Shown: positions 2,926 through 17,542 of the stretch, in pieces
How the letters are laid out: each line of letters starts with the position of its first letter
How positions within the stretch are numbered: position 1 is the first letter of the stretch
Assembly (NCBI GenBank): GCA_965227295.1
Contig: OZ245742.1
Span: 5,824,001 to 5,888,000 of the forward strand
DNA: 64,000 nt
Origin: Leptonemataceae bacterium
GTDB lineage: Bacteria > Spirochaetota > Leptospiria > Leptospirales > Leptonemataceae
Reading direction: 5' to 3'
Translations under genes and position numbers: made by a program
Notes under the pieces: model-generated
Told to the model about the DNA's origin: nothing
Seen by the model: the letters and a program-made list of their open reading frames with translations, nothing else
Databases searched by the model: none

Positions 2926-3310
2926 GGGGAACCGGTTCCCATGACGATGAACGGGTGTCAACTGCACAAGCTACGACTCCCCACCGGATTCGGCGGCCCG
3001 CGGGCTCTCACGGCTGCCCGCGGGTTGCATTCTCTGCCTGACGATCGGGCGAAACGCCGTTACCTCACGCAGCCTTCGTGGCTGAACGGCAGTTTGAAAC
3101 GCGGTCGTCTGTATTGTACGCCATGCTGACAATCCGCTGACAACGTATCTTCCGTAAACGTGCATGAACCTTTACACACGGGGAAGGTTTAGGCGTGCGC
3201 CGGACAGAGCAGCGTCACGTCTGCGACTTCCAAATGAATTCTACTTGATCGCTTCGCCTCCAGGACAGGATGCTCTTATTTTCATCGTTAATTTTCGGGA
3301 AACGAAGCCT

Positions 3311-3919
3311 ATGGCAACTCAGAGCAAAGACCCCGCGGTCCGTGAGACTTCCGACAAAGCCGTCGCCATTCTGGAAGCGGCGCTGGAACTCTTCGCCGCG
3401 CGCGGATACGACGGCACGCCGGTACCGCTGATCGCCGAACGCGCGGGCGTCGGCGCGGGCACCATCTACCGCTACTTTGAAAGCAAAGAAGTTTTAGTAA
3501 ACGTCCTGTATAAGAACTGGCGCATCGTATTCAGCGAAGCGCTCCTCAAAGATGTACCGGCCGAAGCCACGCCGCGGGAAACCTTCGCTCTGGTCTGGAA
3601 ACGCATGGCCGGCTTTCAGAAAGAGTTTCCCCTGGCCTTCGCGTTCCTGGAGTTCTATCATCATCCGTACTTAAACGACGAAAACCGTACATTAACGGAA
3701 AACATGGTGCAGTTCCTCGGCGGCTTCGTGCGCCGCGGCCAGGACCAGGGCATCTTTCAACAGATCGAGCCGGCCGTGTTGATCTTCATCGTCCTGGGCG
3801 CCTTCGTCGGCCTGGTGCGCGCCGAACGCGAGGGCCGCATCACGCTGTCCCCGGATACCATCGCCGAAACGGAAATCTACTGCTGGCGGGCCATCACCAC
3901 GCCGGGAACGAACGCGTAA
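3311..3919 (+). CDS. TetR/AcrR family transcriptional regulator
   Basis: ILEAALELFAARGYDGT..IAERAGVGAGTIYRYFESKE HTH. Confidence 0.92.
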   Translation: MATQSKDPAVRETSDKAVAILEAALELFAARGYDGTPVPLIAERAGVGAGTIYRYFESKEVLVNVLYKNWRIVFSEALLKDVPAEATPRETFALVWKRMAGFQKEFPLAFAFLEFYHHPYLNDENRTLTENMVQFLGGFVRRGQDQGIFQQIEPAVLIFIVLGAFVGLVRAEREGRITLSPDTIAETEIYCWRAITTPGTNA

Positions 3920-3943
3920 GATTCAGGATTATATCCCCGGCAC

Positions 3944-5065
3944 TTAAACATCTCCCGCCCGCAACTTAAGGCTTTCCATAATCTTCCACCAGGCGCCATC
4001 CGCCCCGGGCACCTCCGGACCGCCCGGGCGAAATTCAATGTACAACCCGCGCCGGCCGCGGAGCACGTAGTACTCGTAAAAATAAAAGCGCCGGTCGCGA
4101 TCGCGCAGTTCACTCCGGAGCAGCCCGCAGAATCGGCCGTTCTCCGGGTCGCCGGCGCGACGATCAAAGCTGAGCCGGCCCTGGGCGTCCGCACGGGTAT
4201 CACAGAAATCCGCGTGCTGATCGCTTAACGTACGCTGAAATGCAAGTAAGCGTTTGCGCTGCGCCGTGAGCGTGCGACGGCGATCCCAGAGACGCACGTA
4301 GTCGGGCAACTCCGGATGGTACTGCCCGTGGTCCGCGCCGATCGTAACGATCCAGTCCGCATGTCCCAGATGCACCACGTCCGGATTGTCGCGTTCTTCC
4401 GGCGGGCGATGGTCCCCCGGCGAGGTCAGCGTGTTTTTTCGCACGTGCCCGCGCAAATGATGGTCCGCCGCAAACTTCCAGGCCCCGGGCAATTCCAGGC
4501 GAAAGCCGTGGCGATCACTCAACACGATCGTGCGGCCGCGCTCGTCGTCGAAGAAGGCATACGGATCCGAACGTAAATCAACGGCGGCGAAAGACGCATC
4601 GCGTTCGGCGAGATGATTCAGCCGCGCCGTAGCTTCCCGCGCGGCGCGCCGCACGGCCGCGTTCGCCCGCGGCAACGCCACGGTCATAGACCGCAACGCC
4701 TTCCAGATGCGCAGGGCCTCTTCTTTCAGACCGCGCCCGTACAACGCCTCCGCCTCGCTGTTGTACAACGGCGCCTCGCGACTGTCCGGCAGGACCGGCA
4801 ACCAGTTCGCATCGTACAAACCCGAGGGACCGAGCGGGTTAAACGCGATCTCACCGTGACGATCGATTTCGAATTTACGTTCACGCCGGTCTTCGATCGT
4901 CCAGCGATTGCGCGGGCTTTCGATGATTTCGCCGACCGCGCTGATGACTCCGCGCGCCCGCCGGGATTCCTGACCGGTCCAGTTCTCCCGGAGCAGCGGA
5001 TCCGCACCGGCGGACGTCGCGGCGGCCAGCACCGCAAAGGTTAAGATGCGCGTAAGGATTTTCAT
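3944..5065 (-). CDS. hypothetical exported protein
   Basis: Signal-peptide-like N-terminus MKILTRILTFAVLAAATSAGA; long ORF filling the gap. Confidence 0.7.
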   Translation of the reverse strand: MKILTRILTFAVLAAATSAGADPLLRENWTGQESRRARGVISAVGEIIESPRNRWTIEDRRERKFEIDRHGEIAFNPLGPSGLYDANWLPVLPDSREAPLYNSEAEALYGRGLKEEALRIWKALRSMTVALPRANAAVRRAAREATARLNHLAERDASFAAVDLRSDPYAFFDDERGRTIVLSDRHGFRLELPGAWKFAADHHLRGHVRKNTLTSPGDHRPPEERDNPDVVHLGHADWIVTIGADHGQYHPELPDYVRLWDRRRTLTAQRKRLLAFQRTLSDQHADFCDTRADAQGRLSFDRRAGDPENGRFCGLLRSELRDRDRRFYFYEYYVLRGRRGLYIEFRPGGPEVPGADGAWWKIMESLKLRAGDV

Positions 5066-5145
5066 TGACCGGAGTGCTCCCGCGCCCTTCCCTGAAGCGC
5101 GGTTACTAATATAGTAACATCATCGGTCGTTCGCGGGAAATCGTT

Positions 5146-5865
5146 ATGGCATTGGAACAGGAGAAAGGCGTTTTCGAAAACATCAAGAACCTGGTGAAAC
5201 CGTTCTTCGACATGATGGTGGACATCAAGAAAGAAGGCCTGGAACACGTGCCCGGGGACGGCGCCGCCATCATCGTCGGCAATCATCGCTCGGACATGGA
5301 TCCGTTCATCGTCGCGTCCACCATCCCGCGGTACATTTCCTGGATCGCCGCCGAGTATACCGAGCGCATTCCCATCTTCAAAAATCTGGTCCGCGAAACC
5401 GGCGTCATCCCCATGCAGCTCGACGGTAACGTTACCGTATCTTCCATTAAGCGGCTCATGTCCGTGTTGCGCAACGGCGATCTATTGGGCATCTTTCCGG
5501 AAGGCCACGACTACATGGTGCGCAACGATTTCTCGGCGCCCATGGTGGACTTCCACAGCGGCTTCGGCACGTTCGCCTACCGCGCGAAGGCGCCCATCAT
5601 TCCGTTCGTCATCGTGCCCATCGAAGAGAACATCGAAACCATTCCCCTGCATCCACGGTTGCGGCAAATGATCGGCCTGCCCGACGAGGTCTGCCACATC
5701 CCGCATCGAGTGCAGTACCGCTCCGTGAAGATTGTATTCGCGCCGCCCGTACATGCGAAGGATTTTCGCGGCGTGCCCGAAAAAGAGGCCGTGCCGGAAA
5801 TTGTGACGAAGGTGCGCACGACCATGCACGAGTTGCAGGTTCGCAACGGCATGATCGCGAACTGA
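5146..5865 (+). CDS. 1-acyl-sn-glycerol-3-phosphate acyltransferase (PlsC family)
   Basis: NHRSDMD (HX4D) and IFPEG motifs. Confidence 0.9.
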   Translation: MALEQEKGVFENIKNLVKPFFDMMVDIKKEGLEHVPGDGAAIIVGNHRSDMDPFIVASTIPRYISWIAAEYTERIPIFKNLVRETGVIPMQLDGNVTVSSIKRLMSVLRNGDLLGIFPEGHDYMVRNDFSAPMVDFHSGFGTFAYRAKAPIIPFVIVPIEENIETIPLHPRLRQMIGLPDEVCHIPHRVQYRSVKIVFAPPVHAKDFRGVPEKEAVPEIVTKVRTTMHELQVRNGMIAN

Positions 5866-5872
5866 ACAGTTT

Positions 5873-7333
5873 TTAACTGCTGGAAGCAGCCGCGTCGTTC
5901 GCGGAATCGATGCGCAGCCGAAAAATTTCAATGATCCGATCGAACTCGACGACGCTCGCGTCGAGTTCCGACGACGAACCCGCGCCGAATGCACAGGCGT
6001 CGCGCAACTTTGCCAGGTTCGCGGCCGTCGATTCGAACATCCAGGCCGCCCCTTCGAAGAGATACAACTTGCGTAAGGCCTTGCGCGCGGTCTTCCAGTC
6101 ACCGGCGAGGGTCGCGGTTTCGAGAGCGGTGGCCACGGTCCAGTAGTCCCGCGCGTCGATGCCGCCGCGACGGGCCACGGCGAAGGCCGCGGCATGGGCG
6201 TACGTCCGCGCTTCGTCCTGCGCCTCTTCGAACTCCCAGGGATCCTGGCGGCGCAGAAAACGGTGGGCACGCACAAACATCAACGTGGCCGCGTTTACGC
6301 CGGGATAGTAATCCGACGGATCCAGATGAAAACCCTCGCGATACGCCGCGACCGCCTCGTCCAGATGCAACGAGGCTTCAAAGTCGGAACCGTTCGCCAG
6401 GGCTTCGTCGAAGTTATCTTTATGAATGCGGCCGAGCAATCCTAAAGTTTCGGAAGTATGAAGTTTATCCGCGATGAGTTGGTCCAGGACGGCCTTCGCC
6501 CGGCGGCGATCACCGTCACCCTTGCGGCGATTCAACGCGAAGGCAAACAGTTCGCGCACCGCCGGAGAAGCAGCGAGCGGACCGTCCGGCAACCGTTCCA
6601 CCGACGCAATCAACGCGTCGTAATCCTTGACGTCGCGATAGGCGCGCAAGAGATCCAGAAAAAGCTCCGTTTGATGTTCTCCGGGCCCGGCCTCGCCGAA
6701 GTGTTCGGCCGCAAACCTGGCCACGGCCTCCCGGGCGTTCGCGGCGCTGACGCTTTCGCGCAATGCCTCGCGCACGTGAGCGGCCGCGTTCAGCCGTTCG
6801 CGGAAACTCGCGGCGGTGCGCGGGTCCATCGGCACGCCGGGATAGTCCGGAATCAACCCGAACAACGGACTGTCCTGGAGATTCCGGTCCTCCAGGTATT
6901 CTTTGATCTTGCGCGTCAAGTTACTGCGCAACGATTCGGCCTCGGCGTCTTCGAGATAGCCGGCGTTGAGCTTGTACGGCAGACCGCGGAGCATGTTGAT
7001 GTCAAAGGGCGGCGGCCCCGAGGGCGCGAAGATCATGAGCGTGGAACGCGGTCGGGCGGCGTGACGTACGCCGAGTTCGTAGTATACGTTCGCGTTGGGT
7101 ATGGTGACCTCGGCGATGACGAAGTCGGCGCAGAGCAGACGCTCGAACATGGGCGTATGAATGATGCCGCCGCCCTTTTCCTCGTCGGCGCGGATCACGT
7201 CCAGTCCGGCATCCAGGCACGCCGGACGGATCCCCGCCTGGTAAATGCGATCGAAATCGATCTCGTGAATTCCGGCCGCGTCCATCTTCTTGCCGAAGGG
7301 CATTACGATAAAAGCTAAAGGATTATTCGACAT
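5873..7333 (-). CDS. N-terminal nucleoside deoxyribosyltransferase/TIR-like domain fused to DUF4071 (MAP3K TRAF-binding-like, TPR) domain
   Basis: AFIVMPFG..RADEE..ADFVIAEVTIPNANVYYELGVRHA, then FALNRR, SETLGLLGRIHKD, YYPGVNAATL, DYWTVAT. Confidence 0.82.
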   Translation of the reverse strand: MSNNPLAFIVMPFGKKMDAAGIHEIDFDRIYQAGIRPACLDAGLDVIRADEEKGGGIIHTPMFERLLCADFVIAEVTIPNANVYYELGVRHAARPRSTLMIFAPSGPPPFDINMLRGLPYKLNAGYLEDAEAESLRSNLTRKIKEYLEDRNLQDSPLFGLIPDYPGVPMDPRTAASFRERLNAAAHVREALRESVSAANAREAVARFAAEHFGEAGPGEHQTELFLDLLRAYRDVKDYDALIASVERLPDGPLAASPAVRELFAFALNRRKGDGDRRRAKAVLDQLIADKLHTSETLGLLGRIHKDNFDEALANGSDFEASLHLDEAVAAYREGFHLDPSDYYPGVNAATLMFVRAHRFLRRQDPWEFEEAQDEARTYAHAAAFAVARRGGIDARDYWTVATALETATLAGDWKTARKALRKLYLFEGAAWMFESTAANLAKLRDACAFGAGSSSELDASVVEFDRIIEIFRLRIDSANDAAASSS

Positions 7334-7342
7334 AAGTTAGAA

Positions 7343-7981
7343 TCAGCCCTGGGGGATTGCGCTTTTGTCGGAGCCGTCGTCCGTGGTCGCGGGACCGGGG
7401 CCGGTTTCGCTTTGCCCCGCGGCGGGCCTGGCGTCCGTCCCTCCGGCGACGGGCGCGTCTTCGGCTTTGTCGCTCTTCTTTGAAAGTACTTTGCGACTCG
7501 CGTTCCGGCCCCAGGCCGCCACGGTCTTTGCGATCAACCCTTCCGTGCGTTCGACGAAGAGCGGAAACGGATCCGCGCCTTCGGTGCTATCTTCGTCGTA
7601 GACTTCCGCCCGGGCCAGATAAAGAAACTTCTCGCGGGTCAGGGACTCACTGATGAGCCGGTAATCCACCCAGTTCTCGTGAAACTTAAAGAGCGATAAC
7701 ATGCCCGCAACGATTGTTAATAGGACACCGATGCCGCTCACTACCAGGGGTAGTACGAGGACGCCGAACGCCTCCGGCAAGACGATGGCGATGCCCGACA
7801 GGAACGGGATGCACGCCGCCAGGATGATGTTGAGTACCGTCAGCCAATGGTACCGGGTCTTGTTTTTCCCGCTGTTTTTGGAATGCCAGGCGATCTGTCC
7901 ATCCACGCGGTCCCGGATGTAGCCTGCCGGATCGAGATCGTCCGCCGTAAACGGCGCCGTTGAATCGGTGTAAGGGTGCAT
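7343..7981 (-). CDS. DUF4231 (SLATT family) 2-TM protein
   Basis: YIRDRVDGQIAWH..two TM helices..FKFHENWVDYRLISESLTREKFLY..FVERTE. Confidence 0.88.
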   Translation of the reverse strand: MHPYTDSTAPFTADDLDPAGYIRDRVDGQIAWHSKNSGKNKTRYHWLTVLNIILAACIPFLSGIAIVLPEAFGVLVLPLVVSGIGVLLTIVAGMLSLFKFHENWVDYRLISESLTREKFLYLARAEVYDEDSTEGADPFPLFVERTEGLIAKTVAAWGRNASRKVLSKKSDKAEDAPVAGGTDARPAAGQSETGPGPATTDDGSDKSAIPQG

Positions 7982-8201
7982 GTTACGATCCTACTCCGAT
8001 CATCGAGATTCCGCGAGCGAGATTCCAGACCGCAACGTTGCGTTGCGCGAACTTTTCAGTCATTGCGAAAGATCCTTACCATTACCACGGCCGGCCGGAA
8101 AATCTCTGAAAAGCAAGCGCCCCTCGCAACGCTCCGCTTAAGATTCCCAAAAATTCAGCTTGCGGCATGTCTTAATATCGAGGAAATTCACGGGCCCCGA
8201 A

Positions 8202-9722
8202 ATGAAAGCGCCACAGAACGACATCTTCATCAGCTACGCTCACATCGACAACGCCTCGTTTTCGGAAGATGAGGAAGGCTGGGTCACGCAGTTGCACCGC
8301 ATCCTGGAATTGCGTCTGGCGCAATTGATGGGCGAGCAGGCCCGGGTATGGCGCGATCAAAAACTAAAGGGCAATGACATATTCGACGAGACCCTGGAGG
8401 AACGTTTTCGTAACACGAAGCTTCTGATCTCCATCGTAAGCCCGCGCTACGTTAAGTCCGATTGGTGCATTCGAGAATTGAACGGTTTCAGCGAGGTGGC
8501 CCCGCCCGCCGGGGATCGTTCCCGGGTGTTTAAGGTCGTGAAGACGCCCGTGGATCTTGACCGCATGCCGGAGCAGTTCCAGCGTACGCTGGGCTACGAG
8601 TTCTACAAAAAACATCCCGAAACCGGACGCCCCCTGGAGCTCAGCCTGGACCAACCGGAGACCAGGAAGGATTTCCTGGCCCGTCTGGACGATCTGGCGT
8701 ATGAGATCGTCGAATTACTGCAGGAACTCCGCAACGGAACGCCGGCCGATCCTCATCCGGAAGGCCGTACAATCTATCTGGCAGAAACAAGTTTTGATGC
8801 AGAGGATGAACGCGACGCGTTGAAACGCGATCTCCTGGAAAAAGGCCACCGCGTCCTGCCGAACCTGGAGTTGCCCGACAACGCTCCGGGAATCGACCGG
8901 GCGGTGAACGAAGCACTGGCGGAATCCGATCTTTCGATTCATATCGTGGGCGGCTACTACGGCGTGGTGCCCGCCGCCACGGAATACTCCGTCGTCCATT
9001 TGCAGGATGACATCGCCGCGGATCATGCCGAACAATCGCCGCAGTTCATGCGTTTGATCTGGCTCCCCGCGAATCGTCCGGCCCGGGAAGAACGCCAGCA
9101 AAAGTTCCTGCACGATCTGCATAATGACCCGCGCGCCGCGGGACGAACCGATATCGTGCACGGTACATTAGAGGAATTTAAGGAAGTCGTCGAAGAAACG
9201 CTGAAGAACCTGCGCAGTCGGGAAGCCCGTGCCGAAGAACGCGGGACCACCGCGAAGGAAGGCGCGGCGTCCGCGAACGAAAACGCGGGCAGCGTCTACC
9301 TGATCTACTGCCGCGAAGATGAGGAGGAGGCCTATTCCCTGGCGGAGTACCTGTTTGAAGTACACGGCCTGAACGTTATGACGCCCCTGCTGGACGGCGC
9401 GGGCGACGAAAGCGAACTGCGCGAAGATCATCGGGAGAATCTCGTTTCCTGTGACGCCGTAATAATTTTCTACGGCTCCGCTGAAGAGACCTGGCTGCGG
9501 GAAAAACTCCGCGAACTCAAAAAGATTCCCGGCTACGGTCGCGACCGTCCGTTTTCCGGCCGCGCGGTATTTCTGGCACCGCCGGCCACGCCGCATAAAA
9601 CCAAACGCCTGCTGGTCCAGGGCGTGGAAATCATTCGCAGTACCGACGAGATCCGTCCGGAGACCCTGGAAGATTTCGCGATTCGTATCAAAGAAAAATC
9701 CGGCGCGGAGGCGTCGGCATGA
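8202..9722 (+). CDS. TIR-domain protein with additional DUF4062-like and TIR/SEFIR-like domains
   Basis: DIFISYAHID..VSPRYVKSDWCIREL (TIR with catalytic-type Glu); TIYLAETS..SDLSIHIVGGYYG; SVYLIYCRED..CDAVIIFYG. Confidence 0.85.
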   Translation: MKAPQNDIFISYAHIDNASFSEDEEGWVTQLHRILELRLAQLMGEQARVWRDQKLKGNDIFDETLEERFRNTKLLISIVSPRYVKSDWCIRELNGFSEVAPPAGDRSRVFKVVKTPVDLDRMPEQFQRTLGYEFYKKHPETGRPLELSLDQPETRKDFLARLDDLAYEIVELLQELRNGTPADPHPEGRTIYLAETSFDAEDERDALKRDLLEKGHRVLPNLELPDNAPGIDRAVNEALAESDLSIHIVGGYYGVVPAATEYSVVHLQDDIAADHAEQSPQFMRLIWLPANRPAREERQQKFLHDLHNDPRAAGRTDIVHGTLEEFKEVVEETLKNLRSREARAEERGTTAKEGAASANENAGSVYLIYCREDEEEAYSLAEYLFEVHGLNVMTPLLDGAGDESELREDHRENLVSCDAVIIFYGSAEETWLREKLRELKKIPGYGRDRPFSGRAVFLAPPATPHKTKRLLVQGVEIIRSTDEIRPETLEDFAIRIKEKSGAEASA

Positions 9723-11662
9723 ACGGGGATATTCGCAATCCCTTCCCCGGCCTGCGGCCGTTCCAGCCGCACGAAAATCATCTCTTCTTCGGTCGCGAAG
9801 ATCAGATCGACGAACTGATTTCGATTCTCCGTCGTCGGCACTTCCTGGCCGTCGTGGGTACCTCGGGCAGCGGCAAGTCTTCTCTGGTGCGCGCGGGTTT
9901 GATTCCGGCTTTGCAGAGCGGTTACATGCACGGCGAAAGCGCGAACTGGAAGATCATCCTGCTGCGTCCCGGCGACGGACCGCTGCAAAAACTCGCCCGG
10001 GGCATTAACATGGCCTTCGGCGAACGCGACGAATACTACCCCATGCGCGCTTCATTGATCGAAACCACATTGCGGCGCAGCGATCTGGGGCTGCGCGAAG
10101 CATTGCGCCAGGCACGGCCGCCGGAGAACACGAACGTGCTCATTCTCGTCGACCAATTCGAGGAGCTGTTTCGGTTTCATGAAGCGGCCAGGCATCGCAA
10201 CGCCGGCTCGGACGAGGCCTCGGCTTTCGTACGTTTGCTGTTAAAAAGCAGTGTCGAGAACCAGGATGGTTCCGTATACGTTTGCCTGACCATGCGCTCG
10301 GACTTCCTGGGCGACTGTTCGTTGTTCTCCGGACTGCCGGAGGCTCTCAACTCCGCTCAATATTTGATTCCTCGGTTGAGTCGTAATCAAAAACGCCGGG
10401 CCATCGCCGGCCCCATGGCCGTCAGCGGGGCGCGCATGAGCGCCCGCCTGTTGCGCCGACTCTTAAACGATATCGGCGACGACCAGGACCAGTTGCCGAT
10501 CTTACAACACGCGTTGATGCGCATCTTCGATCGCTGGCGCTCGACCCTTTTGTACGGGAGACGCAAAGGGGACGGCCCCGTTCCCTTCGAACAAATGCGC
10601 GAGATTGACCTGGAAGATTACGAGGCGGTGGGCGGATTTCAGGAAGCCCTTTCGCGTCACGCGGAGGAGTTGCTGGGAGTCATCGCCAGACGTCACAGCG
10701 ATGCCGGCATTGCGGTCGCCGAGGCCTTGTTCCGTCGGCTCACGGAAATGGGACCGGACAATCGCGGCGTGCGCCGCCCGGCGCGCTTCGAAGAGATCCC
10801 CGCCGTCGCCCACGCGCCGCGGGAGGTCGTCGAGGACATCGTCAACATCTACCGCCACCCCTCCTGTTCATTCATTATGCCGCCGCCCGGAACGCCCTTG
10901 AGCGACAACGTGGTAATTGATATTTCCCATGAAAGTTTGATGCGGGTGTGGAGTCGGTTAACGACCTGGGTCGCAGCCGAGGGGCGTTCGGCGCGCATCT
11001 ATCGACGCCTGGCCGAGACGGCCGGCATGCACGCCCGGGGGGAGGCGGCGCTCTACACGGGCGAGGACCTGAACGTTGCCCTGGAATGGCGGGAAAACGA
11101 ACGACCCGGTCCGGTGTGGGCCGAACGTTACGGCGGAGACTTCGAATACACCATGCAGTTCCTGGAGACGAGCCGGCGCAGTCGCGACCAGGAACAGGCG
11201 GAACGCAAGGCCAGGGAACTCGCCCTCCAGGAAGCCCGGGCCCTGGGCGAACAGAGTCTCGTTCTGCGCAACATCATCTCTACGATTCCGCACTATATCT
11301 TCTGGAAAAACCAGGACCTGATCTACCAGGGTTGCAATGAAAGTTTTGCACGCGCCGCCGGCCTGGAGGACGCTGCTCAAATCGTCGGCCGTTCCGATCT
11401 GGAGTTGTGGCCCGCGGAAGAGGCCGAGAAATATCGTGCGGACGATCGGCGCGTAATGGAGCTGGGCGAGCCGGAGTATCTCGAAGAGGCCCAGACCCAG
11501 GCGAACGGCGAGACCATCTGGGTGGCCACGAACAAGGTTCCTCTGCGTAACTCTCAGGACCAGGTGATCGGAATCCTCGGTACCTTTATGGATATTACGC
11601 ACATCAAACGCCTGGAGCTCCAGCTGGAACGTATGAGCGGTAAAACGGTGGAGGAGACATGA
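9719..11662 (+). CDS. nSTAND1-type P-loop NTPase with C-terminal PAS/PAC domain
   Basis: NPFPGLRPF..FFGRE, Walker A GTSGSGKSS, Walker B LILVDQFEELF, MRSDF, LPILQHAL, DISHESL; C-terminal IPHYIFWKN..YQGCNESFA..KVPLRN..GILGTFMDIT; ATGA overlap with TIR gene. Confidence 0.88.
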   Translation: MNGDIRNPFPGLRPFQPHENHLFFGREDQIDELISILRRRHFLAVVGTSGSGKSSLVRAGLIPALQSGYMHGESANWKIILLRPGDGPLQKLARGINMAFGERDEYYPMRASLIETTLRRSDLGLREALRQARPPENTNVLILVDQFEELFRFHEAARHRNAGSDEASAFVRLLLKSSVENQDGSVYVCLTMRSDFLGDCSLFSGLPEALNSAQYLIPRLSRNQKRRAIAGPMAVSGARMSARLLRRLLNDIGDDQDQLPILQHALMRIFDRWRSTLLYGRRKGDGPVPFEQMREIDLEDYEAVGGFQEALSRHAEELLGVIARRHSDAGIAVAEALFRRLTEMGPDNRGVRRPARFEEIPAVAHAPREVVEDIVNIYRHPSCSFIMPPPGTPLSDNVVIDISHESLMRVWSRLTTWVAAEGRSARIYRRLAETAGMHARGEAALYTGEDLNVALEWRENERPGPVWAERYGGDFEYTMQFLETSRRSRDQEQAERKARELALQEARALGEQSLVLRNIISTIPHYIFWKNQDLIYQGCNESFARAAGLEDAAQIVGRSDLELWPAEEAEKYRADDRRVMELGEPEYLEEAQTQANGETIWVATNKVPLRNSQDQVIGILGTFMDITHIKRLELQLERMSGKTVEET

Positions 11663-12000
11663 ATCAAAAGATCTTTATTTTAACAAGCGCCGCCGCCTAC
11701 GAACAAGCACGCGCGCTCGGACAGTACGCAATTCCCGATCCCACCGAGGGATTCATTCACGCCTCCCCGGCGGATCAGTTGAACCGGGTGGCCAACAAGT
11801 ACTACACGGGGGTTGAAGACCTGCTGCTGCTCATCGTGGACCCGCAGCGCGTCCACGCGGAAATCAAATGGGAACCGGCCACCGGGGGACTCTATCCGCA
11901 CATCTACGGCGATCTGAACCTCGACGCCGTAACCAAAATCGTACCAATTCAAAAAGCAGCCGACGGAACGATCGTCATTCAGCCGGAGACTCTGGAATAA
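11659..12000 (+). CDS. DUF952 domain protein
   Basis: EGFIHAS..VANKYY..LLLLIVD..IKWE..YPHIYGDLNLDAV; ATGA overlap with upstream gene. Confidence 0.9.
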   Translation: MNQKIFILTSAAAYEQARALGQYAIPDPTEGFIHASPADQLNRVANKYYTGVEDLLLLIVDPQRVHAEIKWEPATGGLYPHIYGDLNLDAVTKIVPIQKAADGTIVIQPETLE

Positions 12001-12025
12001 GCCGGAACGCGCCGCGGGGGAAGCC

Positions 12026-12319
12026 ATGGGATTCAAAGTTGAGTTTAATAACATCTTACGAACGGATGTTTTCAGATCGAAGGACTTGAACCAGGGAGAG
12101 CGCTACGGCTTCAGCAAGGCCGGGGACCGTATCTTTATGGACACGCTTCCCATCTGGCTGAGCCGTAGCGACTGGACCGCGATCGCGGAAATCCGCATTG
12201 TTACGCAGACCAGACAGGGCCGACGCGTACACGGCGAATTCGAAGTACTGCACGTCTACAACACGGCGGAGCGACGCGCCATTACAAGAATGTTTCGCCG
12301 CATGTTCGGCCGGGCGTAG
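12026..12319 (+). CDS. small hypothetical protein (DUF2584-like)
   Basis: MGFKVEFNNIL..K.G.RIF..PI.L..W.A.A pattern recalled from the DUF2584 family. Confidence 0.55.
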   Translation: MGFKVEFNNILRTDVFRSKDLNQGERYGFSKAGDRIFMDTLPIWLSRSDWTAIAEIRIVTQTRQGRRVHGEFEVLHVYNTAERRAITRMFRRMFGRA

Positions 12320-12322
12320 TCG

Positions 12323-14215
12323 TCAATCCAGCTCACGTCCCTTCGCCAGGTTATCGACGATCCAGGTACCCACGCGCAGCGCGTTGGCCATCACACTGAC
12401 CATGGGATTTACTCCCAGGCCCGTGGGCATAAAACTGGAATCCACGATGAACACGTTCCGGACCTCGTGCATGCGGCAATTGCGGTCCACCACCGACGTC
12501 AGCGGATCGTCTCCCATGCGACAGGTTCCCATCTGGTGATCGCCGATCAACGTGAGATCCGCGCTGTCGGGGACACGCAGTTCAATGCCGAGATCCTGAT
12601 AACGCGAGAAGATATCCTCCAGCCTGGAACGCAACAGCCGAAAGATCAGCCGCTCGTGTTCGCCGAAGCGCCGGGTAATGCGCGCCACCGGCAGCCCGAA
12701 TTCGTCGACATAGGTCGGATCCAGGGTCACGCGGTTGTCCGCCATGGGCAGATCGTCTCCCGTGGCCCGGAGTTCCAGGCTGCGGGCGTAACGATCCATC
12801 TCGCGCAGGAGATCCAGGCCGATCTTCGCGCCGGTACCGCTTACGAGTTCGTAAGCGTGAAAGAGCGGATCTTTGCGTTGCGTGCCCGTTAAGATTCCGC
12901 TCTTCCACCAGCGTTCGTCTTCATCTTTCAGAAAGTAGTGATCGTAAATAGCCGCCGATCCGGTGTTACCGATTTGTGAATGCAACATGCCCTGGTATTT
13001 TTCCGGCAGCACGCAACGAGCGGTCATACCGAAGAGATGAAACATGGCATAACGACCGATGTTGCCGTAACGATTGCCCAGGCCTTCCGGCGGACCTGAT
13101 AACAGCAACAAACGAGAAGTTTGTACCGCACCGCACGAAAGTATGACGAAACGCGCTCGTTCGATGCGGATCACGGGATTGTCCGGGTCCGTGAGATCGA
13201 GATACTTCACTCCGGTGGCCCGCCGCAGTCGATCGTCGTACATCACTTCGATGACTTTCGCCCCCGTTCGTACCTCGGCGAACTCCGGCAAATCGTTCAA
13301 CTCCCGAATCGTCGTGGAAAAGGTCCCGCTCTTGGGCGGCCGACTTCCCCAGCATACGTACTCGCCGCAGTAGCCGCAGAGGTTACAGGGATCCCGCCGA
13401 CGCTCCGACCACAACTCTTCCGCCGGACGCCGCCAGAAACTACCGCTTCGATCCCGCCACGACGCCTGCGCACGCGCAATCTGCTCGCGCGTATCGTACT
13501 CCGGTCCCCCGGGATGTACCAGGGCCGTCGGAAGACACACGGGATTGAGTCCGGCATGCCTCGCGCCCTGGTGAACGAAACGACCCACCGGGGTCAGAGG
13601 ATAGTCGGGGGCGGGATAGGGAAAGTCTGCGGCCCAGGCGCCGTATTCCGCAAAGTTCGGATTAATGGAACTCAGCGCTTTATACCATTCGCTTTCCACC
13701 AGCGCGCGGTTCATCGCGTCGCGATCACCGCAAACCGCCAGCAAAACCTCCGCAATGTTGAAGTACGGTTCGAATTCCGAGTACGAGACCGGCCAGTCGG
13801 GGATCGAATAGCCCCAACGTTCCAGTTCCTCCAGTTGCCCCGTACGTTGAAAGTGATCCCGCAAACGCAGGTCCACGGGCAACGGTCGCACGGCCCATCC
13901 GCCCCAGAGCATGGAGCCGCCTCCGAGCGCCGTGCCGGTATAACCCCCGGAAAACGGACGCGCGTCGACCTTTTCGGAAGGCCGAAACGTACAGTAATCT
14001 CCCCTCAGTCGACGTTTAGGGTCGGGACGTTCCAGACGAAATCGAAACTCGTCGTGCATGGTCGGATCGAAACTCCGGTCCGATTCGTGGATGGGGCGCG
14101 TCCAGTCCGCGCCCTGTTCTAATAGCAACGTTTTGTATCCGGCCCTGGCGAGCATCCAGGCGATCGTTCCGCCTCCGCCACCGCTGCCTACGACGATAAA
14201 ATCCAGATCAGCCAT
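12323..14215 (-). CDS. GMC family flavoprotein oxidoreductase
   Basis: VVGSGGGGG FAD motif, GGGSMLWG, CNLCGYCGEYVC cluster, HQMGTCRMGDDP..SVVD..NP. Confidence 0.92.
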   Translation of the reverse strand: MADLDFIVVGSGGGGGTIAWMLARAGYKTLLLEQGADWTRPIHESDRSFDPTMHDEFRFRLERPDPKRRLRGDYCTFRPSEKVDARPFSGGYTGTALGGGSMLWGGWAVRPLPVDLRLRDHFQRTGQLEELERWGYSIPDWPVSYSEFEPYFNIAEVLLAVCGDRDAMNRALVESEWYKALSSINPNFAEYGAWAADFPYPAPDYPLTPVGRFVHQGARHAGLNPVCLPTALVHPGGPEYDTREQIARAQASWRDRSGSFWRRPAEELWSERRRDPCNLCGYCGEYVCWGSRPPKSGTFSTTIRELNDLPEFAEVRTGAKVIEVMYDDRLRRATGVKYLDLTDPDNPVIRIERARFVILSCGAVQTSRLLLLSGPPEGLGNRYGNIGRYAMFHLFGMTARCVLPEKYQGMLHSQIGNTGSAAIYDHYFLKDEDERWWKSGILTGTQRKDPLFHAYELVSGTGAKIGLDLLREMDRYARSLELRATGDDLPMADNRVTLDPTYVDEFGLPVARITRRFGEHERLIFRLLRSRLEDIFSRYQDLGIELRVPDSADLTLIGDHQMGTCRMGDDPLTSVVDRNCRMHEVRNVFIVDSSFMPTGLGVNPMVSVMANALRVGTWIVDNLAKGRELD

Positions 14216-14942
14216 GATTCAAATCCTCCTCGATCGTTTTCATGAATCGATCGCATACCTCAGCCGCGAACTCCGGGGTGTAAGTATTTCCCGGGCGACG
14301 GTGTTGGCCTAACTCAATCAGCAGAGCTTCTCGAAAGGGCTGCTGCGCAGGGTTACGTCCACCCAGGGCGGAGTACAAAAGATCCGCACAATAGCGTTTC
14401 AGAAATTCCTTCGAAGTAAAATGCGTGCCCGGCCAATTCGGATTGCGATCTTCGAATAACGAAGCGGCGTAGCACTTCCAGTCGTCCGCGCTTTCCGGGG
14501 CATTCAATTCCGTGCAGTACATGAAGTCCGGCAGCGTCTTCTCGTAAAAGTCGATGCGCGAGATTTGTCGCGGACCGCTCTTCAGTACGTTGTAAGCACG
14601 TTCCGGATCGAAGGCGGGTCGATTGTACAATCCCCGGTCCGCGCGCCAGGCCCGGGCGGCTTCACTTCCGTCGGGATGACGCACCAACGGATCGTAACGA
14701 TGCTCGCGCCAGAGATACAACAAATCCTTACCGCCGGACGTTTCCCGCATTAGACCCTTGAAAAATAGTAACGCGCCGGTATGCGCAATGCGCAGAGTTT
14801 CCCCCGACTCCCGCCAGGGTGGTGAAGGTTCCGGCACCAGGAACTTTTGCTCGATCCAGTCCTCCAGTGGAAGGAGCGCGTCGGCAAGGGCCTCCAGGTT
14901 CGTCATCATATCATGATTCAGCAATTTCCCGATATAAGCCAT
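14208..14942 (-). CDS. hypothetical protein, translationally coupled upstream of GMC oxidoreductase
   Basis: 8-bp overlap with GMC start; no recognised motif. Confidence 0.7.
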   Translation of the reverse strand: MAYIGKLLNHDMMTNLEALADALLPLEDWIEQKFLVPEPSPPWRESGETLRIAHTGALLFFKGLMRETSGGKDLLYLWREHRYDPLVRHPDGSEAARAWRADRGLYNRPAFDPERAYNVLKSGPRQISRIDFYEKTLPDFMYCTELNAPESADDWKCYAASLFEDRNPNWPGTHFTSKEFLKRYCADLLYSALGGRNPAQQPFREALLIELGQHRRPGNTYTPEFAAEVCDRFMKTIEEDLNHG

Positions 14943-15119
14943 GGCCCGCTCTATGCCGAGCGCTATATTTACGCAATCTAAACTTAATAAAAGTTACAGT
15001 TACCGATTGATTTACGATCGATGCAGCATATGCAAGAAAATCGAATATTTTGCGCCCACATCGAAGGCGTACTAAAAGGAGACATGACAACCGCCGCACC
15101 GCATAGTAAGGCAATGAGC

Positions 15120-16121
15120 ATGAAAGCAATCATCATCGAAAAACGCGGCGGGCCCGAGGTTCTCCAGATCCAGGAAGTGCCGGACCCGGTACTGGTACCC
15201 GGTCACGTAATCATCAAGGTCCTGGCGTCGGGACTGAATCCCATCGATGCAAAAGTCCGGGCCCTGGACCTGCCGTTCGCGCCGAAGACGCCGGCCATTC
15301 CACATTGCGATGCCGCCGGCGTGATAAGCGCCGTAGCTGAAGATGTGCGTCACTTAAGAATCGGAGACGAGGTATACTGCTGCGCCGGCGGCATCGCGGG
15401 TACGCCGGGGGGCGCGCTCGCGGAATACATGCTCGCGGACGCGAACCTGGTCGCGCGAAAACCGAAGCGACTGAGTTTTCAGGAAGCGGCCGCCGTACCC
15501 CTGGTGGGACTCACGGCCTGGGAGGCCCTCGTCTGGAAGGCGGGGATTCGCCCCGGGGACAACGTATTGATTCACGGGGGTACCGGCGGCGTCGGCCACT
15601 TCGCCGTGCAACTCGCGCGCGCCGCGGGGGCCCGGGTTACCGCAACGGTATCGTCCGCAAAAAAAGCACGCGTGGCGAAGCAGCTCGGCGCAACGACCGC
15701 GGTAAATCGTACGAAGATGCCGCCGGAACAGTATGTCCGCGAACTTACGGACGGCCGGGGCTTCGACGTCGTCTTCGATACGGCCGGCGGAGACAATCTT
15801 GAGCGTTGCATCGAAGCGACACGACCGAACGGAACCATCGTAAGCGTCGCGGCCCGGGAGGAACATAACCTTCTTCCAATGTATGTTAAGGGCCTGAGTC
15901 TGATGAACGTACTCATGCTGGTTCCCATGCTGACCGGTGTCGGTCGGGACCGTCACGGCGCGATCCTGGGAAAGCTCGCGGCATTGATCGACGCCGGACA
16001 CCTGAAGCCGCTCTTACATAAGAAGACATTCACGTTCGCCACGGCGGCGAAGGCCCACGCCCTGCTGGAAAGCGGACGCCATACCGGCAAGATCGTACTG
16101 CAAGGCTTTCATAAGAGTTAG
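15120..16121 (+). CDS. MDR-family NADPH:quinone oxidoreductase (zinc-type alcohol dehydrogenase-like)
   Basis: MKAII..GGPEVL, LNPID, VLIHGGTGGVGHFAVQLA, GKIVL. Confidence 0.92.
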   Translation: MKAIIIEKRGGPEVLQIQEVPDPVLVPGHVIIKVLASGLNPIDAKVRALDLPFAPKTPAIPHCDAAGVISAVAEDVRHLRIGDEVYCCAGGIAGTPGGALAEYMLADANLVARKPKRLSFQEAAAVPLVGLTAWEALVWKAGIRPGDNVLIHGGTGGVGHFAVQLARAAGARVTATVSSAKKARVAKQLGATTAVNRTKMPPEQYVRELTDGRGFDVVFDTAGGDNLERCIEATRPNGTIVSVAAREEHNLLPMYVKGLSLMNVLMLVPMLTGVGRDRHGAILGKLAALIDAGHLKPLLHKKTFTFATAAKAHALLESGRHTGKIVLQGFHKS

Positions 16122-16267
16122 CCGCGGATACGCGGGGGTTCGGATTGCCCGCCGCGGAGGGGTGCTCGAGCCATCGTACTGTACTTCGGCGTCGGTAGCC
16201 TGCGCGGGTCGATTCGGCGTTCATCTTGACACACAGCGCGGGCGCGGGGCTTTTAACGCATCTCGCC

Positions 16268-17542
16268 ATGAATGTATCCCGCTCCGGCCCGGCCGTCCTC
16301 GCCTTCGTTCTACTCATCCTCCTGCCGAACCAACCATCGCTGTTCGCGCAGAGTCTTCCGACCATGCCGGCGCCCGAACCGCCGGCCGTGCTGGCCCCCG
16401 CCGCGGACCGCAACTTTCGCGTGGACGTACTCACCGTGGATCCCGGCGACGAGGCATACTCCGCCTGGGGCCACACCGCGTTGCGCATCTACGACCGCAA
16501 TTCGGGGCAGGACGTCGTTTTCGATTACGGCATGTTCGATTTCTCGGACGACTTCTTTGTGCGATTTTTGCGCAACCAGCCGGCCTATCTGCTCTGGGTC
16601 AGTTCTCTCGATCGAACGCTACGATTGTATCGCCGGCTGAACCGACGCATCTATGCGCAGCAGATTCATCTCAGCGACGAGGAAGCGCAGCGCATCTTTC
16701 GCCGCCTCGTCTTCGAGGCGCAGCCGCAAAACCGCGTCTATCTCTATCATCACTACCGCAACAACTGCACCACGAAAATCCGCGACCTCTTCGATGAAGA
16801 GCTGTGGAACAACGACCTCAAGCGCACGTACGGCGACGCGTACAACGGCAAATCCTGGCGCAGCATGGCCAACGCCATGCTCGTAGACAACCCGCCGTAC
16901 TGGATGGCCGTAACTTTAATTCAGGGATCCTTTGTGGATACACGCGTGTCGAAGTACCAGGAAATGTACCTGCCCCTGGACTTCATGCGCATCCTGGACG
17001 ACTATCGCGAGCGACACCCGGAACGACTGGGTCCCATCGTGGAGGTCCAGGACGAACGCATCCCCCGCGCCGAACCGCCCACGACCTATCGCTGGACAAT
17101 GTTGTTTTTAGTCTGGGGCGTGTTGATTCTGTTCTGTTACGGATTGCCGGCCTGGTTCGCGCAGCGCCGCCCGTTTCGCATTGCCGGGGCCGTCTTTCGT
17201 TATCTGTGGTACATCGGCGCGGGCATTACCGGTACGTTGCTCTTGCTGCTCTGGCTTTTTACGAACCACGACTCCCTCGATAACAACCTGAACGTCCTGG
17301 CATTTTTTCCGTTGCTGTTGTTCATGCCGCCGTTCCTGCTCGTGCTGCGCTACATCATGCCGGACGTCGAGGCGAGGCACGCATTGCATCTGAAACTACA
17401 CCTCGGCCTGGCCGCCGTGCCGGCCCTGGGCATTCTGCTTGCCATCACGACCATCAGCCCGCAGATCACGGCGCTGGTCTATCTCGTGCCGTCATTGATC
17501 ATACAACTGCTCATCTACGCGTATTTCCGACGAGCGAGGTAG
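16268..17542 (+). CDS. DUF4105 (Lnb-like) membrane protein
   Basis: LTVDPG.E.YSAWGHTALR..FDYG.FDF, Y.YHHYRNNCTT, C-terminal TM helices. Confidence 0.85.
   Translation: MNVSRSGPAVLAFVLLILLPNQPSLFAQSLPTMPAPEPPAVLAPAADRNFRVDVLTVDPGDEAYSAWGHTALRIYDRNSGQDVVFDYGMFDFSDDFFVRFLRNQPAYLLWVSSLDRTLRLYRRLNRRIYAQQIHLSDEEAQRIFRRLVFEAQPQNRVYLYHHYRNNCTTKIRDLFDEELWNNDLKRTYGDAYNGKSWRSMANAMLVDNPPYWMAVTLIQGSFVDTRVSKYQEMYLPLDFMRILDDYRERHPERLGPIVEVQDERIPRAEPPTTYRWTMLFLVWGVLILFCYGLPAWFAQRRPFRIAGAVFRYLWYIGAGITGTLLLLLWLFTNHDSLDNNLNVLAFFPLLLFMPPFLLVLRYIMPDVEARHALHLKLHLGLAAVPALGILLAITTISPQITALVYLVPSLIIQLLIYAYFRRAR

Follow-up and report, generated by a model that had tools for sequence, protein, structure and literature searches.

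How is an immune-receptor-like ATPase switched on when a single small domain takes the place of its sensor array? This question is raised by a gene in the 64,000-nucleotide stretch of a Leptonemataceae genome analysed here (the window), whose product, an nSTAND1 protein, carries a cytoplasmic PAS domain in place of the usual membrane-anchored repeat sensor. In the portion of the literature covered by our search, the bacterial STAND or NLR-like receptors with known triggers recognise phage proteins via large repeat arrays; the window holds the same chassis with, as its sole sensor, a 110-residue PAS of a tightly conserved kinase-sensor subfamily. If functional, this protein would offer a small and experimentally accessible example of an NLR-like switch gated by a small molecule or by metabolism, and if the PAS were only a dimeriser, it would still be a natural experiment in sensor swapping.

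An nSTAND1 NTPase with a lone PAS domain

The nSTAND1-PAS gene (9719..11662, + strand) is a single ORF with an ATG start, encoding 647 residues whose full-length AlphaFold model has a pLDDT of 88.8. Residues 8-438 (9740..11032, +) constitute the nSTAND1 NTPase module, with a P-loop core and a putative helical domain and winged-helix region, and match Pfam PF20703 over model positions 1-371 of 379 (E 2.2e-88; 297.9 bits against a cut-off of 27.1). In that model the NTPase shows helical bundles next to an alpha/beta core, with a small beta unit formed by residues 342-402, and in Foldseek searches it matched only Cdc6/Orc1-type AAA+ proteins, with TM scores of 0.26-0.32. Walker A and B are intact: in an alignment of 59 nSTAND1 proteins at least 8 of their 18 positions are invariant and 2 more are conserved in at least 90%. 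In Walker A (GTSGSGKSS, residues 47-55; 9857..9883, +), G47, S49, S51, G52, S54 and S55 are invariant, with G50 and K53 at 90% or more, and in Walker B (LILVDQFEE, residues 141-149; 10139..10165, +) the invariant residues are L141, D145, Q146, F147, E148 and E149. The N-terminal NPFxGLxPF motif is present as NPFPGLRPF (residues 7-15), and across the three motifs most positions are invariant or at least 90% conserved in the 59 sequences.

After the NTPase module, a long linker helix (residues 475-521; 11141..11281, +; full-length model m9b2647435979), which corresponds to helix 2-37 in the model of the PAS region (pLDDT 94.2), leads into a PAS_4 domain (residues 523-628; 11285..11602, +; Pfam E 7.3e-18) and a C-terminal helix (627-646). 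The original prediction had proposed an nSTAND1 ATPase with a short coiled coil before a lone PAS domain, and with neither repeats nor a transmembrane helix, and this architecture is real: the single ORF matches both PF20703 and PAS_4; the coiled-coil peptide (residues 489-505, nt 11183-11233) is there, lying in both AlphaFold models within the one longer helix 475-521; WD40, TPR and FGE families are absent from the protein in a Pfam scan at E≤0.01; and the best 19-residue Kyte-Doolittle mean, 0.92, speaks for the absence of a transmembrane helix.

A misassembly or a one-off chimera, a worry that had been voiced from the start, might mimic such a fusion. The genome is a single 5.94-Mb contig, and one contig from run X1, which may be the source assembly, covers window positions 2000-17000 without a single difference. 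A second sample from the same study (X2) has contigs at 7694-10392 and 10941-11930 that likewise show 0 differences to the window and that between them cross the two gene junctions as well as the join of NTPase and PAS, and the same architecture recurs in six other proteins from three further lineages, at 41-48% identity along 98-99% of their length. Misassembly and a chimera are thereby excluded. A run with the same species label from another study (X3) covers none of 2501-17000, and no inference was drawn from it.

Across the four lineages the nSTAND1-PAS architecture is kept at 41-57% identity. All 7 PAS-type NTPases form one group in a 135-row NTPase tree (SH-aLRT 93), the six other than that of the window grouping at SH-aLRT 100, and monophyly of the PAS domains of the 7 proteins was not rejected (p-AU 0.73). 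The PAS swap is rare and probably of single origin. Among the C-terminal regions downstream of NTPases linked to the TIR partner described below, 32 of 45 are WD40-type and 1 of 45 is a PAS, in agreement with the earlier proposal that a lone PAS stands where nSTAND1 proteins usually bear repeats. The family is large, with 27,531 representative proteins matching the nSTAND1 profile at E<1e-30; in a wide search with the PAS region, non-exhaustive because five known nSTAND1-PAS proteins are missing from its matches, only the window protein carries PF20703 among the 120 of 221 matches listed. A transmembrane-like segment occurs in 41 of the 45 and in 225 of 243 nSTAND1 relatives, and in the window protein there is none. 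Since the usual members of the family are membrane-anchored, the PAS swap would also shift sensing from outside the cell, its presumed site in those relatives, to inside.

Typical nSTAND1 relatives are about 1000-1500 residues long, against the 647 of the window protein, which also lacks the ~60-residue tail that follows the PAS in the other six. Both features would fit a decayed or truncated remnant of a nSTAND1 protein with transmembrane helix and propeller, left without a working sensor. We regard decay as extremely improbable: the frame is intact, all NTPase motifs are present, the architecture is held in four lineages, the PAS model reaches a pLDDT of 94 and the coupling to the upstream gene is conserved.

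The PAS domain and its resemblance to VqmA

Sequence (E 4e-4) and fold (Foldseek E 7.7e-10, 24-25% identity, rmsd 2.0 Å over 117-119 columns) both make VqmA the nearest relative of the PAS domain with a solved structure. VqmA, known from Vibrio cholerae and phage VP882, is a PAS-LuxR receptor of the autoinducer DPO (PDB 6ugl, 6ide, 6kju and 7dwm). VqmA and the window PAS share K23/K530, N33/N540, D53/D560, D71/D576, K101/K606 and P103/P608, together with an aromatic at F67/Y572. The residues of VqmA that contact DPO are F67, F99 and K101 (preprint 10.1101/2019.12.19.881847); in the window K101 is kept as K606 and F67 as the aromatic Y572, whereas F99 is lost, being replaced by a threonine (T604). 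The alignment suggests a VqmA-type pocket as a resemblance to VqmA, not as membership, and the outputs differ, with an HTH domain in VqmA and an NTPase switch in the window protein.

As for its descent, the PAS domain derives from a histidine-kinase subfamily, whose signature is IPHxxFWKD ... GKTDxDLPW ... KVPLRD; its best NCBIfam match is region 137-280 of the ArcB model (E 7e-15). Sensor histidine kinases with the same PAS, 34-52% identical to that of the window in the best segment, are encoded at 77 other loci drawn from species-representative genomes. HATPase_c is present in 23 of 25 scanned proteins with this PAS subfamily, and nSTAND1 in only 3 of its 80 host ORFs. The PAS of the sensor kinases feeds a kinase; in the window it follows a STAND NTPase. 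Within the subfamily H525, W529, K530 and N540 are invariant and D560, D576 and K606 at least 90% conserved, while the window has N531 at a position occupied by Asp in at least 90% of members.

The original prediction held that activation may be by a small molecule or by redox or metabolic state, rather than by a phage protein. The first part gains indirect support from VqmA as top match by sequence and by fold, and from K606 and Y572. We found no cofactor or redox motif in the PAS domain and no conserved cysteine in the PAS region of six aligned proteins; LOV-type or ArcB-type cysteine chemistry was rejected for want of an invariant Cys in these six.

PAS domains also serve as plain dimerisation or protein-binding modules, which, like N531, T604 and the missing cofactor motif, counts against the small-molecule reading. 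This one might instead recognise a protein, be it from a phage or a mobile element or a host protein altered by infection, as a compact sensor in the manner of Avs and bNACHT, with no metabolite involved; PAS domains can mediate protein-protein contacts. The experimentally characterised antiviral STANDs of bacteria, in the part of the literature that was searched, all sense phage proteins, and the partner and NTPase chassis is common to versions with WD40 sensors. We nonetheless hold protein sensing to be unlikely, given that the histidine-kinase subfamily of this PAS is tightly conserved and keeps pocket-type residues invariant, the opposite of the fast-evolving surfaces that an antigen sensor should have, and that VqmA, the closest relative of known structure, has a small molecule as its ligand.

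The upstream TIR partner, a candidate mechanism and the genomic setting

The account given by the original prediction, although correct for the ATPase itself, was incomplete, since a separate, putative TIR effector is encoded directly upstream. The partner gene (8202..9722, +), comprising a TIR domain, a DUF4062 and a TIR-like third domain, lies in an ORF that opens at TTG 8160, with ATG 8202 as its likely start. The partner stop codon and the nSTAND1 start codon overlap in an ATGA (9719-9722), downstream of a GGAGG-like site, and from this arrangement we take the two genes to be translationally coupled. The TIR domain (8223..8546, +; TIR_2, E 1.7e-16) carries a catalytic-type glutamate, E106 in the numbering of the TTG ORF, which aligns with the W..E motif of PdTIR in a conserved W-C-x-x-E context: all 76 homologues out of 76 have E106, W102 and C103. 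The partner is predicted to be an NAD-cleaving TIR protein.

The second domain, a DUF4062 of the NIR/DrHyd type with a TIR-like character (8772..9008, +; Pfam 28.3 bits against a cut-off of 24.7), may be inactive. According to two 2026 preprints, DUF4062 domains are TIR-like NADases that serve as STAND effectors, and the catalytic Glu of the DUF4062/NIR NADases of Swarozyc and PsAvs2 is E97 in KpSwz and E108 in PsAvs2. The family profile matches the DUF4062 of KpSwz (PDB 10wc, E 0.0016), in an alignment that stops 7 residues before the expected E97; the window domain alone matched nothing useful in the PDB. At one candidate position, 280, Glu is found in 24 of 76 partners and His in the window; another is the invariant Q282 (76 of 76 partners), which in our own placement lies near the expected catalytic Glu and may mean a loss of activity. 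We found no second DUF4062 protein in the same genome. The third domain (9282..9719, +) is weakly TIR-like: 29 of 73 members match TIR_2 at E≤1, the best of them at 1e-4 and still short of the cut-off, with an hhalign probability of 38% against domain 2 of the partner; a profile search of the PDB gave nothing below E 0.2.

The pairing of partner and NTPase is conserved. In each of the four other loci for which DNA was available (L010, L011, L016 and L153), nSTAND1-PAS is immediately preceded by a partner homologue, with E values of 1e-96 to 1e-115 for the first three. Conversely, nSTAND1 is directly downstream of the partner in 65 of 80 metagenome loci, and 13 of the remaining 15 have at most 267 nt of downstream DNA. 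There is even a natural fusion, P0150 (1880 aa), with the partner at 6-490 and nSTAND1 at 497-959. Prediction of the complex between partner and NTPase gave a score of 0.68, a model confidence and not a measurement, against 0.00 for the best of 3 controls; a score this high was attained in 116 of 157 solved complexes and in 2 of 215 mismatched pairs, counts that are only rough because the alignments were our own. At least 94% of the contacts are the same between runs, the partner pLDDT is at least 79, and the predicted interface joins partner residues 307-336 and 370-446, the latter in the third domain, to NTPase residues 18-35, 63-77, 135-137 and 221-250. This supports a model in which the partner docks on the NTPase via its third domain, and names concrete residues to mutate.

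The observed domain content of the pair and the conservation of its catalytic-type residues are compatible with a two-gene NLR-like conflict module, probably of the abortive-infection type, to which we give an even chance as a whole: an nSTAND1 switch, a PAS small-molecule gate and a docked TIR effector whose NAD+ cleavage ends in arrest or death. The nSTAND1 NTPase would be the switch and the upstream TIR protein a detachable effector, docked through its third, TIR-like domain on the N-terminal and P-loop region of the NTPase. At rest, the C-terminal helix and the PAS would autoinhibit the NTPase by holding it closed. A cytoplasmic cue, most likely a small molecule bound in the VqmA-like pocket around K606 and Y572, would act on the PAS and release the NTPase for nucleotide exchange and oligomerisation; the oligomer would then cluster the bound TIR domains, so that NAD+ might be cleaved using E106, with cell arrest or death, and presumably defence, as the outcome. 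How nSTAND1 systems are activated and how a detached TIR effector is recruited become directly testable with this pair.

FAD oxidoreductase genes near the cassette, in the window and in two other lineages, are as compatible with metabolism or signalling as with defence. The cassette lies in a variable block of ~10.3 kb (5873..16121). Two genomes of the same genus lack this block at the syntenic position, their flanks (window 5145-5747 and 16418-16800) being 372 nt (G002) and 1227 nt (G001) apart. We found no phage, integrase or tRNA hallmark in the block, no tRNA in the window, no compositional shift (GC 0.593 in the block and 0.598 and 0.596 in the flanks) and no direct or inverted repeat of at least 10 nt between 5741-5960 and 16051-16300. 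A gene for a DUF952 protein of the ADP-ribosyltransferase clan (11659..12000, +) overlaps with its start the nSTAND1-PAS stop (ATGA), and is absent from the other PAS-type cassettes. A second conflict-type pair, SLATT and TPR-S, directly adjoins the cassette, and a GMC oxidoreductase gene lies within the same block. Loci L011 and L016, from different phyla, have five further downstream genes in common at 42-61% identity (X, Y, a GMC oxidoreductase, a BBE-like oxidase and an ABM-like protein), and L010 carries BBE-like and ABM genes. A 244-aa ORF of the window (14208-14942) has no similarity to gene Y of L016 and no Pfam or NCBIfam family.

The FAD oxidoreductase genes beside the cassette in the window and two other lineages, together with a PAS of the ArcB/VqmA type, are what would be expected if the pair were not anti-phage and formed instead a physiological signalling or programmed-dormancy module, reading a redox, metabolite or quorum-type signal, perhaps linked to the neighbouring secreted FAD oxidases, with TIR-made NAD products or NAD+ depletion as its output. 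We find this rather unlikely. GMC enzymes are common, and the one in the window shows just 23.6% identity to its counterparts in L011 and L016; L010 and L011, being closely related, provide a single observation; for L153 the downstream sequence amounts to no more than 900 nt; and the SLATT and TPR-S pair is typical of defence islets. The 80-locus control set is itself unbalanced, as it rarely extends past the long nSTAND1 gene. It is quite improbable, in our estimation, that the pair is a cytoplasmic NLR-like death switch set off by a diffusible or metabolic small molecule in place of a viral protein, where a PAS of the VqmA/ArcB type, on reading an oxidised or autoinducer-like metabolite, drives the nSTAND1 oligomer and the docked TIR NADase, and where the secreted FAD oxidases that accompany the cassette in the window and two other lineages possibly produce or degrade that metabolite; if true, it would join quorum or metabolite sensing to NAD+-depletion immunity or programmed dormancy.

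Comparison with known systems

In MalT-type STAND regulators, NTPase oligomerisation is gated by a metabolite, with a helical-repeat sensor and a DNA-binding output; we know of no TIR partner or PAS domain in MalT. Cyanobacterial AAA_35 + PAS and AAA_35 + GAF proteins (163 and 62 members in ESM Atlas clusters, with a feature score of 0.93 for the first) have a P-loop 'AAA-like' NTPase followed by a small-molecule-type sensor, a lead only, as AAA_35 (PF14516) is a different NTPase family that the window protein does not match at E≤0.01; a literature search for AAA_35/PF14516 gave only unrelated matches.

Known defence systems show both similarities and divergences: (i) Avs and bNACHT antiviral STANDs likewise combine three elements, an effector, a STAND NTPase and a sensor at the C terminus, and, according to a preprint (10.64898/2026.09.04.749371), NAD-cleaving effectors occur in Avs, including the DUF4062/NIR of PsAvs2. 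However, Avs are single polypeptides with a TPR-like array binding phage proteins, whereas the window has a separate effector and a PAS sensor, and its NTPase is of the nSTAND1 family rather than of an Avs clade. None of the PADLOC Avs models matches, the only hits being weak P-loop matches to mad3 and mad8, and PADLOC v2 gives no system match, nor a model for either protein beyond weak P-loop or TIR matches. (ii) Thoeris pairs the TIR protein ThsB with ThsA (SIR2, or Macro with SLOG); the window matches ThsB only at E 7.5e-4, and Thoeris is ruled out, as there is no ThsA-like gene among the annotated ORFs of the block. (iii) Seven supplementary files of a 2026 Nature survey of STANDs contain 0 occurrences of PAS, nSTAND1, PF08448, PF20703 or DUF4062, and in the literature searched we found no experimental phenotype for any nSTAND1 system.

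The closest system is that of the 'TIR+DrHyd -> nSTAND1+TM+BetaPropeller' pairs catalogued by Kaur, Iyer, Burroughs & Aravind in 2021, in which a gene for an NTPase of the same family (PF20703) comes, as in the window, directly after a gene in the same orientation for the same three-domain TIR/DUF4062 protein. In that work (eLife, PMC8195603), supplementary file 1 contains 'TIR+DrHyd' 103 times and 'nSTAND1+TM' 461 times, and 'nSTAND1+PAS' has 0 occurrences in 12 of the 13 supplementary files, where the terminal '+PAS->' form is swamped by CASPASE and PNPase. The Kaur pairs carry a transmembrane helix and a propeller or TPR array, whereas the window protein lacks the membrane helix and the extracytoplasmic repeat sensor, and has a helix and one cytoplasmic PAS. 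The system described here is a rare sensor-swap variant of this catalogued two-gene TIR/nSTAND1 conflict system.

Architecture and authenticity of the nSTAND1-PAS protein

The ORF at 9719-11662 (+ strand) encodes a protein of 647 aa, here called nSTAND1-PAS, in which an nSTAND1 domain (residues 8-438; Pfam E 2.2e-88) is followed by a PAS_4 domain (residues 523-628; Pfam E 7.3e-18). The Pfam scan reported no repeat families, and no TM-like segment was present, the highest 19-mer hydropathy mean being 0.92. The full-length AlphaFold model (pLDDT 88.8, pTM 0.75) comprises a P-loop core, helical and small beta modules, a PAS core at 526-625 and a last, C-terminal helix; residues 486-647 modelled alone reached a pLDDT of 94.2. 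Pfam, hydropathy and the model thus bear out the original prediction of an nSTAND1 NTPase that ends in a lone PAS domain, with neither repeats nor a TM helix. The peptide proposed as a short coiled coil after the NTPase region is, in the model, part of one helix of 47 residues (475-521). Both the Walker A (GTSGSGKSS) and Walker B (LILVDQFEE) motifs are intact, and their positions are mostly invariant or at least 90% conserved among 59 aligned nSTAND1 proteins.

A misassembly or a one-off chimera had been envisaged as the alternative, and two lines of evidence dispose of it. (i) The genome is a single contig of 5.94 Mb, and Logan contigs of the sequencing run X1, which may itself be the source of the assembly, cover 2000-17000 with 0 differences. 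Contigs from a second sample of the same study (7694-10392 and 10941-11930, again with 0 differences) cross both the junction between the upstream partner gene and the NTPase and that between NTPase and PAS. (ii) The architecture is common to six other proteins, with 41-48% identity over 98-99% of the length: P0002-P0005, from Thermoanaerobaculia MAGs and JGI metagenomes, P0008, from a Phenylobacterium MAG, and an ORF on the metagenome locus L153. The nSTAND1-PAS protein is therefore no artefact.

Rarity, origin and nature of the PAS sensor

PAS families were found in 6 of the 120 best among 7,998 nSTAND1 matches, this and the following counts being lower bounds, as nSTAND1 proteins with an unrelated type of PAS could escape. 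When a profile of six PAS-type proteins was run against 1.84 billion representative proteins it gave 27,531 matches at E<1e-30, and among the best 150 of these the full-length combination was seen only in P0008 and the window protein. Searching widely with just the PAS region brought up no additional nSTAND1+PAS protein among the matches listed. From a scan of 185,579 species-representative genomes, run with patterns chosen to be specific for the PAS subfamily, we kept 80 loci, of which 3 had nSTAND1 in the host ORF; 23 of 25 Pfam-scanned host ORFs drawn from the other 77 were histidine kinases with HATPase_c. Since the scanned hosts of the subfamily are mostly histidine kinases, we conclude that the PAS domain was recruited from two-component sensors. 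In the literature on STAND NTPases, PAS sensors and anti-phage defence we found no description of the architecture among the papers listed, and a literature search returned no experimental paper on the nSTAND1 family. The sensors named in the text of a 2026 Nature survey of prokaryotic STANDs are TPR-like, WD40 and FGE-sulfatase domains, and neither PAS nor nSTAND1 occurs as a term in 7 of its supplementary files. In cyanobacteria, the ESM Atlas holds AAA_35 NTPases fused to PAS (a 163-member cluster) or to GAF (a 62-member cluster), so that analogous sensor fusions probably exist on another NTPase family; in these clusters, sensor domains of the small-molecule type may have been joined to STAND-like NTPases in parallel.

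The combination probably arose once. In a tree of 135 NTPase rows (IQ-TREE quick, LG+G4), the seven PAS-type NTPases formed one group (SH-aLRT 93, rising to 100 for the six without the window protein), of which the window NTPase is the deepest and longest branch, and the NTPases known to follow a TIR partner were scattered over the tree. In a PAS tree of 57 rows the window domain had the other four nSTAND1-linked domains as its nearest rows, and a topology that unites all five was not rejected (p-AU 0.73).

Across 57 sequences of the PAS subfamily, I523, P524, H525, F528, W529, K530, G538 and N540 are invariant, and conservation is 90% or higher at D560, D576, K606 and P608; with N531 the window departs from the Asp found in at least 90% of the subfamily. 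The best solved relative by sequence is VqmA, the PAS receptor of the autoinducer DPO (E 4e-4), which also came first, independently, by fold (E 7.7e-10, rmsd 2.0 A), with phage VqmA at rank 12. The likeness amounts to 24-25% identity, however, and is incomplete at the ligand contacts: F67, F99 and K101, which contact DPO according to the VqmA preprint (10.1101/2019.12.19.881847), align with Y572, T604 and K606, so that F99 is replaced by Thr. The best NCBIfam match was to the ArcB model, in its PAS region (E 7e-15, falling far short of the cut-off set for the whole protein), and no conserved cysteine was found in the PAS region of six aligned proteins. The resemblances to VqmA and ArcB are leads towards a putative small-molecule pocket.

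A genome-specific block and its neighbours

In two genomes of the same genus, the flanks 5145-5747 and 16418-16800 lie 372 nt and 1227 nt apart by DNA comparison; by this measure the window genome has about 10.3 kb (5873-16121) of its own. No nSTAND1 was found in those two genomes, and it occurred in 1 of 40 related genomes searched. We looked for terminal repeats, a tRNA and a GC shift at this block and found none. Besides the cassette, formed by the partner gene and the nSTAND1-PAS gene, the block holds a second conflict-type pair, divergent from it: a DUF4231/SLATT_1 protein with two TM segments (7343-7981, - strand) and a 486-aa MAP3K_TRAF_bd + TPR-S protein (5873-7333, - strand) with a weak TIR-effector PADLOC match at its N-terminus. 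This pair is not conserved beside the other nSTAND1-PAS cassettes. Downstream, a DUF952 gene (11659-12000, + strand) has its start codon overlapping the nSTAND1-PAS stop (ATGA), and is followed in the block's inventory by a 97-aa ORF, a GMC oxidoreductase with a 244-aa ORF upstream of it, and a zinc ADH. The DUF952 protein belongs to the ADP-ribosyltransferase clan, is Tpt1-like and has a PDB relative in CC0527 (E 3.5e-13). That an NAD-linked fold should be coupled to a TIR system is suggestive, but none of the other four cassettes has this gene. Outside the variable block, a HAMP protein of 637 aa with a class III adenylate/guanylate cyclase domain is encoded at 19142-21055 (- strand).

In the window, and likewise in two other lineages, the cassette is accompanied by FAD oxidoreductase genes. 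The loci L011 (Thermoanaerobaculia; 7123-13088) and L016 (Phenylobacterium; 8628-14837) have five more downstream genes in common, at 42-61% identity, which encode X, a secreted protein with a single CxxCH motif, Y, a protein of 165 aa, and three others: a GMC oxidoreductase, a BBE-like FAD oxidase and an ABM-like protein. Of that set L010 (6706-9014) carries the BBE-like and ABM-like genes. At 12323-16121, inside the same block, the window has its own, distant GMC oxidoreductase, together with the zinc ADH and the 244-aa ORF, which is of no family. One weak GMC match was seen among 80 partner loci, whose flanks rarely extend beyond the NTPase gene; the association may or may not be functional.

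The partner gene and the ordinary two-gene system

The partner gene (+ strand) opens at a TTG (8160), and has a conserved ATG start at 8202. Its end overlaps the nSTAND1-PAS start in an ATGA, upstream of which lies a GGAGG-like site. Its product carries a TIR domain (TIR_2, Pfam E 1.7e-16), a DUF4062 domain (8772-9008; 28.3 bits, above the cut-off) and a third, weakly TIR-like domain. In 29 of 73 members the third domain gave a TIR_2 match at E<=1, in no case passing the cut-off, and hhalign related it to the second domain with a probability of 38%. In the TIR domain, W102, C103 and E106 are invariant over 76 partner sequences, E106 aligning with the Glu of the PdTIR W..E motif. The DUF4062 family is described in two 2026 preprints as TIR-like NADases that include the effector of one Avs2 protein. 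In the region of the expected catalytic Glu, position 280 is Glu in 24 of the 76 partners and His in the window, and Q282 is invariant (76/76), so that the domain may be inactive; a 'PEG' motif whose Glu is kept by at least 90% of homologues has Ala at that position in the window copy. The match with the solved KpSwz domain breaks off before KpSwz E97.

Complex prediction for NTPase residues 1-480 with the whole partner scored 0.68, against 0.00 for the best of 3 controls. Among 157 solved complexes 116 score as high, as do 2 among 215 mismatched pairs; these figures apply roughly, since the prediction was run on alignments of our own. The runs agreed in at least 94% of contacts (partner pLDDT at least 79), and the predicted interface is formed on the partner side by residues 307-336 and 370-446, which belong to the linker and the third domain, and on the NTPase side by residues 18-35, 63-77, 135-137 and 221-250. 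The prediction supports binding of the partner to the NTPase, and fits a partner that would act as a detached N-terminal effector with its last domain as the docking part. The account with the best support is that of a two-gene NLR-like module: the PAS domain, in response to a cue, would gate the nSTAND1 oligomer, and this would switch on the docked TIR NADase. Its role could be in defence or in physiological signalling.

A partner homologue lies directly upstream of nSTAND1-PAS in L010, L011, L016 and L153. As a metagenome query the partner gave 435 confirmed relatives, and in 65 of the 80 loci kept an nSTAND1 gene lies directly downstream; among the other 15 the DNA ends too soon in 13, leaving L131 and L149 as true exceptions. 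Two further nSTAND1 proteins show other arrangements: P0150 (1880 aa) is a natural single-chain fusion of partner (6-490) and nSTAND1 (497-959), and P0121 (1138 aa) has two complete nSTAND1 NTPase modules in tandem, with hydrophobic segments after each. The C-terminal region downstream of the partner was a WD40-type propeller in 32 of 45 cases and PAS in one (L153). In 41 of 45 partner-linked nSTAND1 proteins, and in 225 of 243 database relatives, the NTPase is followed by a TM-like helix, which all seven PAS-type proteins lack.

Since most loci thus have the partner followed by an nSTAND1 protein with TM and WD40, the ordinary system is the pair catalogued in the source data of Kaur et al. 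2021 as 'TIR+DrHyd -> nSTAND1+TM+BetaPropeller', DrHyd being the name of a DUF4062-type domain. In their supplementary file 1 the terms 'nSTAND1+TM' and 'TIR+DrHyd' occur 461 and 103 times, and 'nSTAND1+PAS' 0 times. Compared with this pair, the window gene has swapped its sensor: partner and NTPase are of the same families, whereas the TM helix and propeller give way to a cytoplasmic PAS domain, a swap that, we infer, would shift sensing from outside the membrane into the cytoplasm.
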